Source: Escherichia coli (GTDB lineage: Bacteria; Pseudomonadota; Gammaproteobacteria; Enterobacterales; Enterobacteriaceae). Taken from it: a stretch of DNA of 64,000 nucleotides. Under the pieces are notes generated by a model, which worked only from the letters and a program-made list of their open reading frames with translations, had not been told where the DNA came from and did no database searches. Position numbers and translations under genes: made by a program. This document shows positions 31,367 to 39,693 of the stretch, in pieces. The stretch's first letter is position 1, and the number at the start of each line of letters is the position of its first letter. Location: NCBI RefSeq assembly GCF_003334315.1, contig NZ_QOWR01000007.1, one strand, 5' to 3'.

Positions 31367-31414
31367 ATAGCGAAAGCGTTACAACTGGTAGTATAACGCT
31401 CTGATATCTATTAA

Positions 31415-32692
31415 TTAGCTTGTCGCTAACTGTACTTGCGGTTCTTCATCTTTAACTTTGATAAGCGTCCACAGCGCAATGGCGCCAATAATGTCAAAGA
31501 AAGCCAGGGCAATAAAGAACGGCGCGAAGCCGATAATGTGAACGAATGCCCCGATAAACAGGTTGAAAATCAACTGACCGCTCCACGCACAGGCTCCTGC
31601 CATACCCACTGCGGTAGCTACTTCGTCTTTTTTGAACAGATCGCCACCCAGAGTTGCTGCTACAGTAGAAAGACATTGATGCGAGAACGCGCCAATACTA
31701 ATCAGTAATACGGCAATGTAGGGATTTTCGACAATACTCACCAGGCCAATCGTCATCATAATGACGGCTGCAATAGTGAAGGTAATTCTTCGTGAGTTAA
31801 TTAAACTCACGCCGCGATCGTGGAAGAACTTCGCGACAAAACCACTGGCTAAACAGCCGAGATCGCCCAGCAGGAAAGGCAGCCAGACGAACATGGCAAT
31901 TTCTTTCAGGCTAAAATGCAGCGTTTCGACGAAGAAAATCGGCACCCAGAAGTTAATGGTTCCCCATGCCGGGTCTGCGAGAAAACGCGCGATGCCAATC
32001 CCCCAGAAATTACGTTGGCTGAGGATATGCTTGATTGACGTTTTTTCTTTCTTATCTGTTTTAAGATGCTGTTCTTGCCCTGATTCAATATAGTGGCGCT
32101 CTTCATCAGAAAGGCGTTTGGCATCTTTCGGATCTTTATAACAAAAGAACCAAAATAAAGCCGCGAGCAAAGCAAGGCTACCTGAAACAATAAACGCAAA
32201 TTGCCAGCTATGAAACATAATGCACCAGGCAATCAACGGTGGAGCAAGCATCGCGCCGAGTGAGGTGCCCATATTGAAAACACCTGTCGCCACGCCACGC
32301 TCTTTTGCCGGGAACCATGTTGATGCGGTTTTTACACCCGCCGGAATTGCCGACGCTTCGCTGAAACCCATCAGGGCGCGCATAAATGCCAGACCTGACC
32401 ACGTTCCGGTTAGTGCATGGCCCATTGTCGCCAGGCCCCAAATTGCGGCACATATCGCAAAACTTAACTTCAGACCCACGGTATCAATAAAGAAGCCCAT
32501 TACCGGTTGCCCTAATGTATAGGCCAACTGGAATGCACTGACAATCCATGAATATTGCTCTTTAGTTATTCCGGTTGTCTCCATAATCGTTGGAGCCGCA
32601 ATACCTAACGCCGTTCTGTCCAGATAATTGATTACAGTGATAAAGCATACGAGGGCAATTATATGCCACCGGTAATTCTTTATTTTATTCAT
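31415..32692 (-). CDS. MFS permease, anion:cation symporter (ACS) family (ExuT/DgoT-like organic-anion or sugar-acid transporter)
   Basis: 425 aa, about 12 TM segments; N-terminal signature NYLDRTALGIAAP typical of ACS-family MFS; own AT-rich 92-bp upstream region. Confidence 0.8.
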   Translation of the reverse strand: MNKIKNYRWHIIALVCFITVINYLDRTALGIAAPTIMETTGITKEQYSWIVSAFQLAYTLGQPVMGFFIDTVGLKLSFAICAAIWGLATMGHALTGTWSGLAFMRALMGFSEASAIPAGVKTASTWFPAKERGVATGVFNMGTSLGAMLAPPLIAWCIMFHSWQFAFIVSGSLALLAALFWFFCYKDPKDAKRLSDEERHYIESGQEQHLKTDKKEKTSIKHILSQRNFWGIGIARFLADPAWGTINFWVPIFFVETLHFSLKEIAMFVWLPFLLGDLGCLASGFVAKFFHDRGVSLINSRRITFTIAAVIMMTIGLVSIVENPYIAVLLISIGAFSHQCLSTVAATLGGDLFKKDEVATAVGMAGACAWSGQLIFNLFIGAFVHIIGFAPFFIALAFFDIIGAIALWTLIKVKDEEPQVQLATS

Positions 32693-32784
32693 GTTTAAAC
32701 CTTTTAATTATATTAATAAACCCTGGTTGTTGGTGTTTCCGTGTAATAGGTAATAAAAATCAGGTACAGAGGAAATATTGAAAA

Positions 32785-34857
32785 TTATTGTGTGTAAATT
32801 TCTCCATTTAAAAATTCTGGCCAGTTTTTTTCAAAGTAAATACCGTTAATACACGGTTGCATACGTAAAGACTTCACTTCGGTAATAAAAGAACCTTGCG
32901 AATATTTAATCGTTAATCTGTGATTTTTGTCTTCAGCCCGTTCAGAGCGAAAACGCCATTCTTCTTTTGCGCCGCGACGAGTTTGTGGGAGGCATTTGCC
33001 TTGTGGATCAATAACCATCCGCGCCCCACGACTGCCACCACCTGCGTCAATATAATGCGTCAATTGCGTTAATACCGCGGCCGAAGTCAGCGCCATATGC
33101 CGCCACATAAATAGTTCGGCAATTTCGCCTGCGTGATTGATGGTTAAACCGTGTTGTTGTACAAACTCACTTAGCAGCAGGGCGTCACGGGTGGCGTGAC
33201 GAACTTTATCGGCATGACAAATAAATCCGGCGTAATCAGACATTCGCGCCTGGATTTTTTCTTTCACCGTTACCAGCGCCATTCCGTTCTCATTTACCAG
33301 TGCCTGAGCGATAACTTCTCTGACTATATTCAGAGATGAGGCTACCAGCTGCGCGACATCACCCTCAACAGACCGCTTTTGTGTGCAACCAATAAAGCGC
33401 GCCAGACGCACGGCAATAACCTGTCCGGCATTCAGCGCCGCACCGCCTGGTCGGGTAACGCCGTGAGTTCCGGCTACTTCTCCCACCGCAAAACAACCGG
33501 GCAGGGATGTTTGTCCCCAGATATCCACTTCAATGCCGCCATTCATGTGCTGATTATTCATGGCGAACTGCAGAGGCTGCGCGGTGAGATCGTAACCGTG
33601 CATCTTATACAGCGAGATAGACAGCGGATTCATTCGTTGCAGCCGTTCGATGGGCGATGCTGCCAGAGCGTCGTTATTTTCCAGATACGCGCGAACGTCG
33701 TCGTCCAGTCGATCTAATGTGAAGGGCAAATCACCAGGCACCGCTTCAGGATTGCGATTGAAATCCATAAACACCCGACGACCATGTTGCTGCTCTTGCG
33801 CCACCGCCATATCTAACAAGCTGGAGCCAAAATCCATCACCCGAGTGGCGTGGAACGGCCACTGATAGCCTTTACGGAAAATGTTTGAAGCCAGCTCCTG
33901 GGTGGTGCGATAGTAATCCGCGAGGAAGTTATACTCGTTACCCTCAGCATCCACGGAATAGATATACGGGATCACCTGTACATAGGTGCCGGATAAATTC
34001 CACGGAAACGTGCTACGCGGCGTGCCTATACCAAACTGGCTTTCGGTCAGATTGGTTAGCGTCAGGCCTTCCTCCAGCGCCAGCCCCAGCGAGCCAAAAC
34101 ATTTGTGTGGGTACACACTGTCGCGATAAAGCTCGCCAGGCCCTCCTGTTGCCAGTACCACATTGGGCGCAGTCACAATTGCCAGCCCCCAAGGGTTATG
34201 GGCGCGATGACCGGTCGCGAGGATTGCCCCCGCAACACGGTCTTCGCCGTTTTCGTCACGCTGATGCAGCAGTTTAATCACTGTTGCACTGGTCAACACT
34301 GGAATGGCGAGGCGCTGTACTTCTTCCAACAGCACTTTCACCATTAACCTTGAGGTACGCGGCCCACACGAGGTTGCACGCCCGGCTTCGTCATGGTCGG
34401 TTTGATAACGAAGAATCGCGCCATAGCGATCTTCCGGTAATTCCAGACCAAGATATTGCAACCCGCCAAGAGTGTGCAGAGAACCTACCGCTTCGACATA
34501 AGCGGTGTCGTGATCCATCGCCCCACCGCTCGCCAGTGCCTCTGCCAGTTTGGTGAAGTTGTCGCCGTTGCCCGCGGTAGCGGCGGTAAACAGTGTCTGT
34601 TTATCGGAACCAGAACATGCCGACGTCCCCATATATAACCCGGCAGTGGCGATCAGCACATTTTGCTGGCGGCGTTTAAGTTCCACAGCTGCACGCAGCC
34701 CGGCTGCACCACTGCCGACTACCAGGGCATCTGTTTGCCAGAGTGGGTAATCAACACCGTCTACCGTGACAACCCATGCGGGCTCTGCCTGTGCAAAACC
34801 CTTTGGGAAAGTAACGTGCGTCAGCGCATCAAGGATGGTGTCATCAAGCTGACTCAT
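32785..34857 (-). CDS. FAD-dependent oxidoreductase, fumarate reductase/succinate dehydrogenase flavoprotein-like (FAD_binding_2) with extra C-terminal domain
   Basis: 690 aa; Rossmann dinucleotide motif DALVVGSGAAGLRAA; C-terminal FAD-contact motif GCFAVGEVAGTHGVTRPGGAALNAG; start overlaps upstream stop by 4 bp (ATGA). Confidence 0.8.
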   Translation of the reverse strand: MSQLDDTILDALTHVTFPKGFAQAEPAWVVTVDGVDYPLWQTDALVVGSGAAGLRAAVELKRRQQNVLIATAGLYMGTSACSGSDKQTLFTAATAGNGDNFTKLAEALASGGAMDHDTAYVEAVGSLHTLGGLQYLGLELPEDRYGAILRYQTDHDEAGRATSCGPRTSRLMVKVLLEEVQRLAIPVLTSATVIKLLHQRDENGEDRVAGAILATGHRAHNPWGLAIVTAPNVVLATGGPGELYRDSVYPHKCFGSLGLALEEGLTLTNLTESQFGIGTPRSTFPWNLSGTYVQVIPYIYSVDAEGNEYNFLADYYRTTQELASNIFRKGYQWPFHATRVMDFGSSLLDMAVAQEQQHGRRVFMDFNRNPEAVPGDLPFTLDRLDDDVRAYLENNDALAASPIERLQRMNPLSISLYKMHGYDLTAQPLQFAMNNQHMNGGIEVDIWGQTSLPGCFAVGEVAGTHGVTRPGGAALNAGQVIAVRLARFIGCTQKRSVEGDVAQLVASSLNIVREVIAQALVNENGMALVTVKEKIQARMSDYAGFICHADKVRHATRDALLLSEFVQQHGLTINHAGEIAELFMWRHMALTSAAVLTQLTHYIDAGGGSRGARMVIDPQGKCLPQTRRGAKEEWRFRSERAEDKNHRLTIKYSQGSFITEVKSLRMQPCINGIYFEKNWPEFLNGEIYTQ

Positions 34858-38834: not shown

Positions 38835-38879
38835 ACAATAACTCTCTTTTTTGAATATTGTTTTCTAAGTGACAATTAG

Positions 38880-38923
38880 CTTGCGACGTGCCGCAAGAAA
38901 GATCAACCATCTGGTTGGTTGAT
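38880..38923. promoter_or_regulatory. candidate TetR operator(s): two palindromes in the divergent intergenic region
   Basis: cttgcg-acgtgc-cgcaag (38880-38897) and atcaacca-tctggt-tggttgat overlapping caacca-tc-tggttg (38902-38923), inside the 211-bp AT-rich gap between the operon start and the TetR start. Confidence 0.35.
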
Positions 38924-39045
38924 ATGCGATAGTGATCACAGGACATTTGATAACTTGATGAAAGTACAAGTTTTTATCCTTTTTACTGGAGCTTCTAATT
39001 AATCGGGTTAAGATAGTTATCTTGAAGAGGTCGTGGGGAAGCGTT

Positions 39046-39693
39046 ATGTATCTTGATACCAGCAACGTACAGAGCCTGAAGGAAAAGCTGCTGTTATGCG
39101 CGGTTAATGAATTTGCCGAATATGGTTATGAAGGGGCCAGGGTCGATAATATTGTTAAGGCTGCGGGGTGTAGTAAACAGACGGTTTATCATCACTTTGG
39201 TAATAAAGAAAATTTATTTATTGAAGTACTGGAATATACCTGGAACGATATTCGACAAAAAGAAAAGGCCCTTGATTTCTCAGATCTTCCGCCACAAAAA
39301 GCTATTGAGAAAATTATTGATTTTACATGGGATTATTATATTGCTAACCCCTGGTTTTTAAAAATTGTGCATAGTGAAAATCAAAGTAAAGGTGTGCATT
39401 ATGCAAAATCACAGCGTCTCTTAGAAATTAACCATGCGCACTTGCAGTTAATGGAATCCTTATTGGATGAAGGGAAGAAACACAATATTTTTAAGCCAGA
39501 TATCGACCCATTGCAGGTGAATATTAATATTGCTGCGCTTGGGGGATATTATTTGATCAACCAGCATACGCTTGGCCTGGTTTATCATATCAGTATGGTT
39601 TCCCCCCAGGCACTGGAAGCCAGACGTAAGGTCATCAAAGAGACGCTCCTTAGCTGGCTTTTGGTTGATCCTTCATCTACTGCGCACGAATAA
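39046..39693 (+). CDS. TetR/AcrR-family transcriptional regulator
   Basis: 215 aa from ATG 39046 (GGGGAAG 5 nt upstream); N-terminal [31 protein letters not shown]; divergent from the catabolic operon; AT-rich coding sequence. Confidence 0.8.

Follow-up and report, generated by a model that had tools for sequence, protein, structure and literature searches.

A TetR-controlled operon between rplI and ytfB of Escherichia coli with a hexuronate-type acid as its best-supported substrate class

In this study, we analyzed a stretch of Escherichia coli DNA of 64,000 nucleotides (NCBI RefSeq assembly GCF_003334315.1, contig NZ_QOWR01000007.1; the whole stretch is hereafter called the window) and focused on the seven genes located between rplI and ytfB (positions 31,367 to 39,693). 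These genes constitute an intact operon controlled by a TetR-family regulator, and we put at roughly one half (0.5) the probability that they form an operon, inducible by its substrate, for the catabolism of a hexuronate-type sugar acid; any particular order of reactions within such a pathway would be much less certain than that. A hexuronate-type acid, with glucuronate as the prototype, appears to be the best-supported substrate class, because three different transporters found at the same slot of the locus agree on it. D-glucuronate or a close derivative or isomer would be the leading candidate. Among the substrates proposed in a first-pass annotation, which had been made from the letters of the DNA and a list of open reading frames (ORFs), the sugar acid is thus favored by the transporter evidence, and hydroaromatic acids and hydroxy or enoate acids are ranked below it.

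All seven coding sequences, together with their coordinates, gaps and overlap, were reproduced by the ORF listing of the window: six genes lie on the minus strand and one, encoding the TetR regulator, is divergent on the plus strand. According to the ORF coordinates, the successive spacings along the minus-strand operon are 9, 9 and 9 bp, a 4-bp ATGA overlap and then 92 bp. Each of the seven exact protein sequences was already present in database clusters with the same length and none was truncated, and therefore the genes are intact. The family calls made in the first-pass annotation were borne out for all seven proteins by NCBIfam, Pfam and PDB matches and by structure comparison, and its reading of the genes as a single divergently regulated unit is in line with the tight spacing, the divergent TetR gene and a conserved palindrome between the two transcription units.

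Transporters and regulatory region

The permease gene (31415-32692, minus strand) encodes a protein of 425 aa that belongs to the anion:cation symporter (ACS) family of the major facilitator superfamily (MFS) and is 47% identical to K-12 ExuT over 424 residues (full length, E = 5e-151). It also matched TIGR00893 with 315 bits, which is under the 395-bit cut-off of that family. This MFS allele was observed in 1684 E. coli genomes, whereas in approximately 1446 E. coli genomes the slot is filled instead by a DctPQM tripartite ATP-independent periplasmic (TRAP) system, which replaces the MFS gene from the 92-bp spacer on. The spacer, an AT-rich segment between the flavoprotein and permease genes (32693-32784, minus strand), thereby marks the junction of the transporter module; it falls within a 500-bp interval of 37% GC. 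The MFS permease of Klebsiella and Salmonella is 51% identical to that of the window and 48% identical to ExuT.

The best PDB relatives of the DctP protein encoded by the TRAP allele were 4OVR, 4X8R, 4N8Y, 4N15, 4N91 and 4MHF (E = 1e-62 to 7e-71), and its identity to hexuronate binders, as read from the printed alignments, was approximately 45%. Of these structures, 4N8Y is galacturonate-bound and 4X8R is glucuronate-bound (PMC11668362); 4N91 is glucuronate-specific, and 4MHF binds both glucuronate and galacturonate (PMC7660916). The Salmonella glucuronate binder STM3169 contacts its ligand through N35, Q36, E74, R150, R170, N210 and D237 (PMC7660916). By numbering, DctP matches six of these seven contacts at a constant offset of 4 (N31, Q32, R146, R166, N206 and D233). 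The seventh position is Gln70, where the aligned PDB binders have a Glu that, judging from the same offset, is taken to correspond to Glu74 of STM3169.

Comparison of strains with the MFS and TRAP alleles revealed that the flavoprotein encoded next to the transporter module was approximately 90% identical between them (L002:4491-6572), whereas the four upstream enzymes were 98-99% identical. This difference places a boundary of allele exchange in or near the flavoprotein gene. A comparison of Klebsiella and Salmonella with the window gave 77-79% for the flavoprotein and 87-93% for the four upstream enzymes. It seems from these identities that the flavoprotein gene either travels and recombines with the transporter module or evolves faster. 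The insertion sequence IS1 was located within the 32693-32784 spacer in the closest genome, Z1323PEC0011, which is otherwise 100% identical (L001:4100-4797), as well as inside the MFS gene in several strains and inside the TRAP genes in strain ES2. The recurrence of IS1 insertions at the locus (also hits H31 and H36-H40) suggests that the transporter is frequently inactivated.

The TetR/AcrR regulator (39046-39693, plus strand) has 215 aa when counted from its ATG, and its ORF extends upstream to 39022. NCBIfam and PDB matches to this protein begin at residues 8-14, covering its helix-turn-helix (HTH) domain, and the Pfam domains of its orthologues are TetR_N and TetR_C_29. The divergent region between the regulator and the first gene of the operon is 211 bp long and holds a perfect 8+8 bp inverted repeat, ATCAACCA-N6-TGGTTGAT, at 38902-38923. 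The same palindrome is kept in the orthologous regions of Klebsiella and Salmonella, and the P. vulneris region also has ATCAAC/GTTGAT half-sites; the palindrome is probably the TetR operator. Directly adjoining this putative operator, approximately 98 bp upstream of the start codon of the first gene, lies a site resembling that of the cAMP receptor protein (CRP), TGCGATAGTGATCACA (38925-38940). In the window, only one further sequence comes within one mismatch of the CRP consensus, and the GTGA-N6-TCACA core of the site is kept in Klebsiella and Salmonella. With the two sites side by side, TetR would be expected to act as the repressor and cAMP-CRP as the activator, as is usual in operons for the use of a carbon source. 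A sigma-70 scan yielded no convincing promoter between the two divergent transcription units; for a promoter that depends on CRP, such a result carries no information. A promoter-like site (32812->32784) at the spacer between the flavoprotein and permease genes might be an internal promoter.

Enzymes of the operon and their neighborhoods in other bacteria

The flavoprotein gene (32785-34857, minus strand) encodes a stand-alone FrdA/SdhA-like protein of 690 aa, in which FAD_binding_2 extends over residues 43-475 (1.7e-27); its NCBIfam matches, to TfrA, NadB and FrdA/SdhA, were weak. It belongs to a family of at least 422 clusters at 50% identity (E<=1e-30), with GSDKQT, GYQWPF and QHxNGG as family-specific invariant motifs. 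An AlphaFold2 model based on the family alignment (pLDDT 91.5, pTM 0.93) was compared with FrdA and SdhA by Foldseek, and all four domains superposed with TM values of 0.65-0.80 and a probability of 1.00 at a sequence identity of 15-19%. Residue equivalences were derived from an hhalign profile alignment to E. coli FrdA. H355 and R390 of FrdA correspond to H437 and R469, both invariant in the flavoprotein family, H232 faces the invariant G276, and the proton donor R287 was aligned to a Ser-rich stretch in a low-confidence region of the alignment. The histidine that carries covalent FAD in FrdA (His44, RSHT motif) had no counterpart in the hhalign alignment, in which GTS-ACSGSDKQT stands opposite RSHTVAAEGG, and the FAD of the flavoprotein is predicted to be non-covalent. 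No Fe-S subunit or other electron-transfer partner was found in the operon, in the orthologous loci of Enterobacterales or in a related locus of Rhodocyclaceae; likewise, the operon contained no haem- or FMN-binding partner, and the N-terminus of the flavoprotein had no signal peptide.

The flavoprotein is FrdA-like in its modeled fold and probably in the way it would bind a carboxylate, and it fails several of the features that define fumarate reductase. The flavin-dependent redox role proposed in the first-pass annotation can be kept only as a putative one, since several FrdA/SdhA hallmarks are missing; the assignment to FrdA/SdhA-type flavoproteins itself was confirmed. As judged by its sequence, the protein represents a distinct family for which no characterized member was found.

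The genomic context of this family was analyzed in 80 loci from species-representative genomes, whose neighboring proteins were clustered; three neighbor clusters (c30, c33 and c51) were disregarded as spurious antisense ORFs in high-GC loci. The neighbors included short-chain dehydrogenases/reductases (SDRs; 30), KdgK-like kinases (16) and Eda aldolases (12), as well as GH28 polygalacturonases (L071 and L083), Gfo/Idh/MocA dehydrogenases, sugar ABC transporters and LacI regulators. In Alphaproteobacteria, the loci comprised a sugar ABC transporter, two glucose-methanol-choline (GMC) oxidoreductases, LacI, a Gfo/Idh/MocA protein resembling levoglucosan dehydrogenase, the flavoprotein, a KdgK-like kinase and sometimes Eda. 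Planctomycetota loci contained an Fe-S flavoenzyme of the old yellow enzyme (OYE) type, an SDR, Eda, the flavoprotein and KdgK, twice together with two GH28 polygalacturonases, and OYE-type ene-reductases accompany the family in both Planctomycetes and Firmicutes. The genes of approximately 980 and 880 aa in Planctomycete loci were considered as glycoside hydrolases and rejected, as they encode UvrA (unrelated) and the OYE/Fe-S flavoenzyme, respectively. Thus, the flavoprotein family appears to sit in carbohydrate-acid neighborhoods that end in KdgK and Eda.

Closer to the operon of the window, the gene order TetR-SDR-Gfo-TIM-MFS-flavoprotein, where TIM stands for a triosephosphate isomerase-type barrel protein, was found in Pseudescherichia, Phytobacter and Mangrovibacter, and in Verrucomicrobia, Lentisphaeria and one planctomycete metagenome-assembled genome the flavoprotein has SDR, Gfo and the TIM barrel beside it, but no TetR. 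Brenneria and one Salmonella contig have TetR-SDR-TIM-flavoprotein-MFS without any CoA genes. In the Salmonella enterica contig (L091:3307-12108), this short locus lies between two transposase genes, which suggests a mobile copy of the core module; its TIM barrel is 61% identical to that of the window and its MFS protein is of the sugar-porter type. Rhodobacter and Devosia combine Gfo, the flavoprotein, KdgK, a CoA-transferase, a crotonase, an aldehyde dehydrogenase and a sugar ABC transporter, and a Rhodocyclaceae genome has the full set of SDR, TIM barrel, enoyl-CoA hydratase (ECH), CoA-transferase (CoAT) and flavoprotein, and also a TRAP system and an additional MaoC hydratase. These gene orders point to a recurring core module made up of SDR, TIM barrel and flavoprotein, with the CoA-transferase and crotonase as a recurrent add-on, because the trio works without CoA genes in relatives. 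The label "CoA-dependent" given to the locus earlier therefore fits the presence of a CoA-transferase and a crotonase, but not the core of the module.

The two CoA-related genes are those of a fused family-I CoA-transferase of the YdiF/propionate-CoA-transferase type (34854-36395, minus strand; 513 aa) and of a short-chain enoyl-CoA hydratase, or crotonase (36405-37181, minus strand; 258 aa). The former matched YdiF (PDB 2AHU) with E = 1.8e-113, residues 6-508 aligning with 2AHU 17-518, and a FadX-like NCBIfam family with 380 bits. Its alpha and beta halves are fused, and its putative catalytic Glu324 lies within SVEQG; judging from the offset, Glu324 sits where the catalytic residue of YdiF, which we take to be Glu333, would be expected. 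The longest ORF of the crotonase runs over 36405-37187, and the start at 37181 is that used by the Prokaryotic Genome Annotation Pipeline (PGAP) and in the first-pass annotation. The protein has the pair of catalytic glutamates of its family (E115 in GGGIEL, E135 in NPEVM), and the best PDB relatives were 5ZAI, a 3-hydroxypropionyl-CoA dehydratase (3.6e-40), and 5Z7R, a short-chain ECH.

The xylose-isomerase-like TIM barrel (AP_endonuc_2; 37191-38033, minus strand; 280 aa) is closest to PDB 3QC0/3JU2 (the uncharacterized Sinorhizobium protein S. meliloti SMc04130; E ~7e-85) and 7VPF (9e-62), and PF01261 was detected on every homologue. Weaker matches were to IolI (2e-5) and ketose epimerases (2e-3) in PDB and to 5-keto-L-gluconate epimerase and hydroxypyruvate isomerase in NCBIfam (26-30 bits, compared with cut-offs of 300-353). 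The protein fell into none of the subfamilies of known reaction that were considered (IolE, IolI, hydroxypyruvate isomerase, 3-dehydroshikimate dehydratase and ketose 3-epimerase), and a 3-dehydroshikimate dehydratase was rejected as there was no such PDB match at E<=0.01. The first gene of the operon encodes a classical SDR oxidoreductase (38043-38834, minus strand; 263 aa), which matched NCBIfam PRK12745 with 420 bits, over its 250-bit cut-off, and PDB 4DA9 (1e-56), and has intact TGAARGIG, NNAG (at 92) and Y167-x3-K (Y167TIAK) motifs. None of the seven proteins matched the UxaC, UxuB/UxaB or UxuA/UxaA families in NCBIfam, and the gene list of the operon includes neither a C-C cleaving enzyme (aldolase or thiolase) nor a kinase.

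Proposed pathway and alternative explanations

From sequence and homology, we propose the following scheme. TetR would repress the divergent promoters at ATCAACCA-N6-TGGTTGAT until the substrate or an intermediate binds to it, and the adjacent CRP site would couple expression to catabolite control. The acid would be taken up by an interchangeable transporter (the ExuT-like MFS permease here and the DctPQM TRAP system elsewhere), and the free acid might then be remodeled by the SDR, the TIM barrel and the flavoprotein. In such a scheme, the SDR would oxidize or reduce a hydroxyl or carbonyl group, and the metal-dependent TIM barrel could catalyze isomerization, epimerization or beta-elimination next to that carbonyl. 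The flavoprotein would probably carry out ene-reduction, dehydrogenation or flavin-assisted hydration/dehydration at a C-C bond beside the carboxylate, since it retains the His/Arg pair that holds the carboxylate in FrdA. In loci of the E. coli type, the CoA-transferase might convert the resulting short-chain acid to a thioester, with acetyl-CoA as the probable donor, and the enoyl-CoA hydratase would hydrate or dehydrate that thioester. C-C cleavage and entry into central metabolism would have to depend on enzymes encoded elsewhere, because the operon has none; the earlier description of the locus as a complete route is not supported, the operon having no aldolase or thiolase and no kinase.

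A broader proposal is that the flavoprotein represents a large, unrecognized family of sugar-acid flavoenzymes that feed lower pathways of the KdgK/Eda type, and that the E. coli operon encodes a new, partly CoA-dependent pathway for glucuronate or a derivative or isomer (e.g., iduronate, 4-O-methyl-glucuronate or an unsaturated uronate). The flavoprotein step could be, for example, a flavin-dependent dehydration/hydration or an ene-reduction next to the carboxylate. We regard this combined proposal as tentative, and as likelier to be wrong than right.

Several observations weigh against a hexuronate-type substrate. E. coli already degrades glucuronate and galacturonate via ExuT/UxaC/UxuAB/UxaAB, so a second route for the same acids would need a reason; a uronate derivative or isomer is an equally possible substrate. 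To our knowledge, CoA thioesters are absent from every established hexuronate pathway. The residue match between DctP and STM3169 is one of published numbering and not of aligned sequences, and the family contexts described above come from homologues only 36-58% identical, which possibly act on other substrates. In addition, the short variants of Brenneria and of the Salmonella contig use an MFS protein of the aromatic-acid/sugar-porter type (PcaK-like, 369 bits), which makes uronates less likely in these relatives. Finally, one related locus (L092, 5870-9858) has an acyl-CoA dehydrogenase and a DUF993 protein in the place of the flavoprotein, together with an SDR, a TIM barrel, a crotonase and two CoA-transferases and with no FrdA-like flavoprotein. 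The two proteins may replace the flavoprotein functionally, and a locus with an acyl-CoA dehydrogenase in this place fits a reading as beta-oxidation better.

Such a reading would make the operon a module similar to beta-oxidation that acts on a short-chain hydroxy or keto acid, in keeping with a label of "3-ketoacid metabolism" applied to these genes in 2010 (PMC2831201). The CoA-transferase would activate the acid, the flavoprotein would serve as an alpha,beta-dehydrogenase or an enoate/enoyl reductase, the crotonase would hydrate, the SDR would act as 3-hydroxyacyl-CoA dehydrogenase and housekeeping thiolases would perform thiolysis. CoA-transferase, crotonase and FabG-like SDR are indeed a classical trio, and the short-chain type of the best crotonase relatives (3-hydroxypropionyl-CoA dehydratase), the acyl-CoA dehydrogenase standing in L092 where the flavoprotein would be, the MaoC hydratase added in Rhodocyclaceae and the aldehyde dehydrogenase next to CoAT-ECH in Rhodobacter and Devosia all point in the same direction. 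However, this explanation accounts for neither the TIM barrel nor the hexuronate-type transporters, the SDR-TIM-flavoprotein trio is found in relatives without any CoA genes, the flavoprotein retains carboxylate-binding residues typical of enzymes acting on free acids, and the operon has no thiolase; we consider it unlikely, while giving it more weight than any other rival. A little less probable again is a route for a hydroaromatic or cyclitol carboxylate (quinate, shikimate or a related ring acid), in which the SDR would oxidize a ring hydroxyl, the IolE/IolI-like TIM barrel would dehydrate or isomerize the ring ketone, the flavoprotein would reduce an alpha,beta-unsaturated ring carboxylate as fumarate and urocanate reductases do with their substrates, and CoA transfer and the crotonase would process cyclohexene/cyclohexane-carboxyl-CoA.

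The hydroaromatic route draws on the fact that the only characterized relatives of the TIM barrel in the PDB search were IolI and ketose 3-epimerases, on the Gfo/Idh/MocA proteins with IolG/levoglucosan-dehydrogenase similarity added in sister clusters, and on the permeases of two variants, namely a PcaK-like aromatic-acid:H+ symporter in Brenneria (369 bits) and an MFS protein of the aromatic acid:H+ symporter (AAHS) type in P. vulneris. The CoA-transferase is YdiF-like, and K-12 ydiF adjoins ydiB/aroD (quinate/shikimate dehydrogenase and dehydroquinase); moreover, shikimoyl-CoA would be an enoyl-CoA and hence a natural substrate of a crotonase. On the other hand, all three transporter types of Escherichia and Klebsiella resemble hexuronate, and not aromatic-acid, transporters or binders, the flavoprotein family repeatedly adjoins KdgK, Eda and GH28 genes, and the TIM barrel has no detectable similarity to 3-dehydroshikimate dehydratase at E<=0.01. 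The least probable of the explanations considered, and one we think improbable outright, is an anaerobic electron sink, in which the flavoprotein would be a cytoplasmic terminal reductase of an enoate made from the acid after its import, in analogy with the soluble reductases of fumarate, urocanate or acrylate, and would serve redox balance and not carbon assimilation. E. coli lives largely anaerobically, the fold is that of FrdA/SdhA, the best NCBIfam matches were TfrA, NadB and FrdA, and OYE-type ene-reductases occur beside the family in Planctomycetes and Firmicutes. But a route of electron input would be missing, because neither a signal peptide nor a haem, FMN-binding or Fe-S partner, as a domain or as a subunit, is present. 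The proton-delivery residues H232 and R287 of FrdA are not aligned to conserved equivalents, and the CRP-like site suggests the logic of a carbon source. The catabolism of a hexuronate-type acid is the reading we prefer.

Distribution, significance and relation to known systems

The distribution of the locus was analyzed by megablast against 5426 complete E. coli genomes, with presence defined as at least 80% of the locus. It was present in 3082 of them (~57%); close homologues were also found in E. albertii and E. marmotae, and Klebsiella oxytoca, its relatives and Salmonella enterica have these genes at the corresponding position, with rplI and ytfB on either side. The first-pass annotation had placed the genes outside the conserved flanking gene order, and this view had to be abandoned: the locus is syntenic in the Klebsiella oxytoca group and Salmonella. 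Its statement that K-12 carries only yjfZ and a short ytfA at this position proved accurate for K-12-type genomes, in which we found yjfZ and a TetR pseudogene flagged by PGAP as "missing N-terminus", so the seven genes are not K-12's own. The K-12-type alignment is nearly identical to the window from ~39290 on, near codon 82 of the TetR gene; since this near-identity begins inside TetR, ytfA is the 3' remnant of the regulator gene of the operon, as had been suspected, with the 3' two-thirds of the gene persisting in K-12 and the N-terminus lost. In one survey, ytfA is counted among the TetR-family genes that some strains carry. Based on the synteny in Klebsiella and Salmonella and the presence in 57% of E. 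coli genomes, the locus is ancestral here and no strain-specific island, the K-12 state being derived by a deletion that looks as if it ran from just beyond yjfZ into the TetR gene. In E. coli ET479 (L094:685-1480), a frameshifted yjfZ (DUF2686) sits between rplI and an operon that is itself intact, which shows that yjfZ and the operon can coexist.

Other variations were observed at the edges of the locus. A toxin-antitoxin pair, consisting of an HTH gene and a HipA-family toxin gene, is located between rplI and the MFS gene in E. coli ATCC 11775 (L003:1916-3678) and, as the same insertion, in many human-derived strains (hits H4-H9), whose identity to the window is 94-95%. E. coli and Shigella records also include 207-aa versions of a TIM-barrel protein that are only ~72% identical to the window protein, and beside them many partial entries from Shigella (P0383-P0397); either decay of the gene or a second allele of the locus that has diverged may account for them. 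A hairpin terminator follows rplI (31336-31363; fold -23.9 kcal/mol, z = -4.0). Because an A-tract borders one side of this hairpin and a T-tract the other, the terminator may act in both directions and also end the convergent permease gene. At the opposite boundary, the convergent TetR and ytfB genes overlap by 17 bp at their 3' ends (39677-39693), and their transcription may interfere mutually as there is no terminator between the two.

The locus is not new to comparative genomics. In a synteny survey of 2010, CFT073 c5298-c5303 were listed as set no. 18, "3-ketoacid metabolism", which was absent from MG1655 and O157:H7 and present in four uropathogenic E. coli (UPEC) strains, HS, E24377A, B7A, E2348 and others (PMC2831201). 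The supplement of that survey names c5298 as Hexuronate transporter, c5299 as a putative oxidoreductase (sdhA-like), c5300 as acetyl-CoA:acetoacetyl-CoA transferase, c5301 as CaiD-like, c5302 as IolE-like and c5303 as oxoacyl reductase (PMC2831201). The operon of the window is this locus, flagged in 2010 as uncharacterized with no experiment there. Our literature search found no functional study or substrate assignment of the locus; the search on 7VPF and SMc04130 gave no match, and the GapMind paper had no relevant passage. Names in NCBIfam, in the clusters of the seven proteins and among 120 homologues of the flavoprotein and as many of the TIM barrel were generic only. The earlier statement that the locus is not a characterized pathway thus agrees with both databases and literature. 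Relative to this prior knowledge, the substrate class can be narrowed, by homology, to hexuronate-like acids.

As K-12 lacks the operon, it has escaped classical E. coli genetics and biochemistry. It is carried by uropathogenic and commensal E. coli lineages and, outside that species, by the Klebsiella oxytoca group and part of the Salmonella. The gut is rich in glucuronate and related uronates, which come from mucus, glycosaminoglycans, de-conjugated glucuronides and plant fibre, and urine also contains them in abundance; a second uronate-type route could affect colonization and niche partitioning between strains. If the operon does encode a new uronate pathway, most non-K-12 E. coli, including UPEC strains CFT073, 536, UTI89 and F11, possess it and laboratory strains have lost it. 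In Planctomycetota, Verrucomicrobiota, Lentisphaerota and Alphaproteobacteria, the flavoprotein family is found repeatedly within clusters for carbohydrate acids, and working out its reaction in a tractable strain of E. coli would provide annotations for hundreds of environmental gene clusters. The enzyme combination, especially the flavoprotein family, is one for which no characterized precedent was found, and it represents a testable gap in E. coli metabolism, not a categorically new system.

Among known systems, the 2-deoxy-D-ribonate route of Klebsiella michiganensis (Price et al., 2019; PMC6365646) is similar in that an enterobacterial sugar acid is taken up by an MFS transporter and processed through CoA-bound intermediates. 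Its cluster was rejected as a counterpart on gene content: it is a separate locus with a CoA-synthetase, a beta-hydroxyacyl-CoA dehydrogenase, a thiolase, a lactonase and a glycerate kinase, and without the flavoprotein, TIM barrel and crotonase (PMC6365646). The E. coli hexuronate system (ExuT, UxaC, UxuB/UxaB, UxuA/UxaA, KdgK and Eda, regulated by ExuR) shares with the operon the inferred substrate class, a permease 47% identical to ExuT and an organization in inducible catabolic operons with CRP-type control, and the flavoprotein family adjoins KdgK/Eda in other phyla. However, there is no Uxa or Uxu enzyme in the locus, its regulator is of the TetR and not of the GntR type represented by ExuR, and none of the uronate pathways (isomerase, oxidative or reductive) contains a counterpart of its enzyme set. 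The hexuronate TRAP binders (STM3169-3171, and Apre_1383, Bpro_3107 and Bamb_6123 of the Enzyme Function Initiative) resemble DctP in ~45% identity and in the Arg/Arg/Asn contacts (PMC7660916), and differ from it at Gln70; moreover, the uxu genes beside STM3169 homologues are unlike the enzyme set described here.

At the level of the enzymes, the flavoprotein has the four-domain fold, the GxGxxG FAD site and the His/Arg pair of the FrdA/SdhA/NadB superfamily (including soluble fumarate, urocanate and acrylate reductases, KstD and TcuA), but it lacks the covalent-FAD His, has Gly for H232, is without a partner subunit and carries its own motifs. The pairs of YdiF/propionate CoA-transferase and short-chain ECH known from acrylate/3-hydroxypropionate and butyrate metabolism, and from the caiB-caiD logic, likewise consist of a fused transferase followed by a two-glutamate crotonase, whereas the pair of the window forms part of an operon of the sugar-acid type and is missing in the closest short variants of the locus. 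Finally, the modules for 3-keto-glycosides, levoglucosan and inositol, which oxidize, eliminate or isomerize, and reduce, also combine a dehydrogenase with an AP_endonuc_2 TIM barrel, and the sister clusters of the operon add Gfo/Idh/MocA proteins with similarity to levoglucosan dehydrogenase and IolG. In contrast with these modules, the operon has a TIM barrel of the 3QC0/3JU2/7VPF subfamily, to which no reaction is assigned, would act on a carboxylate, and has the flavoprotein as an obligatory partner.

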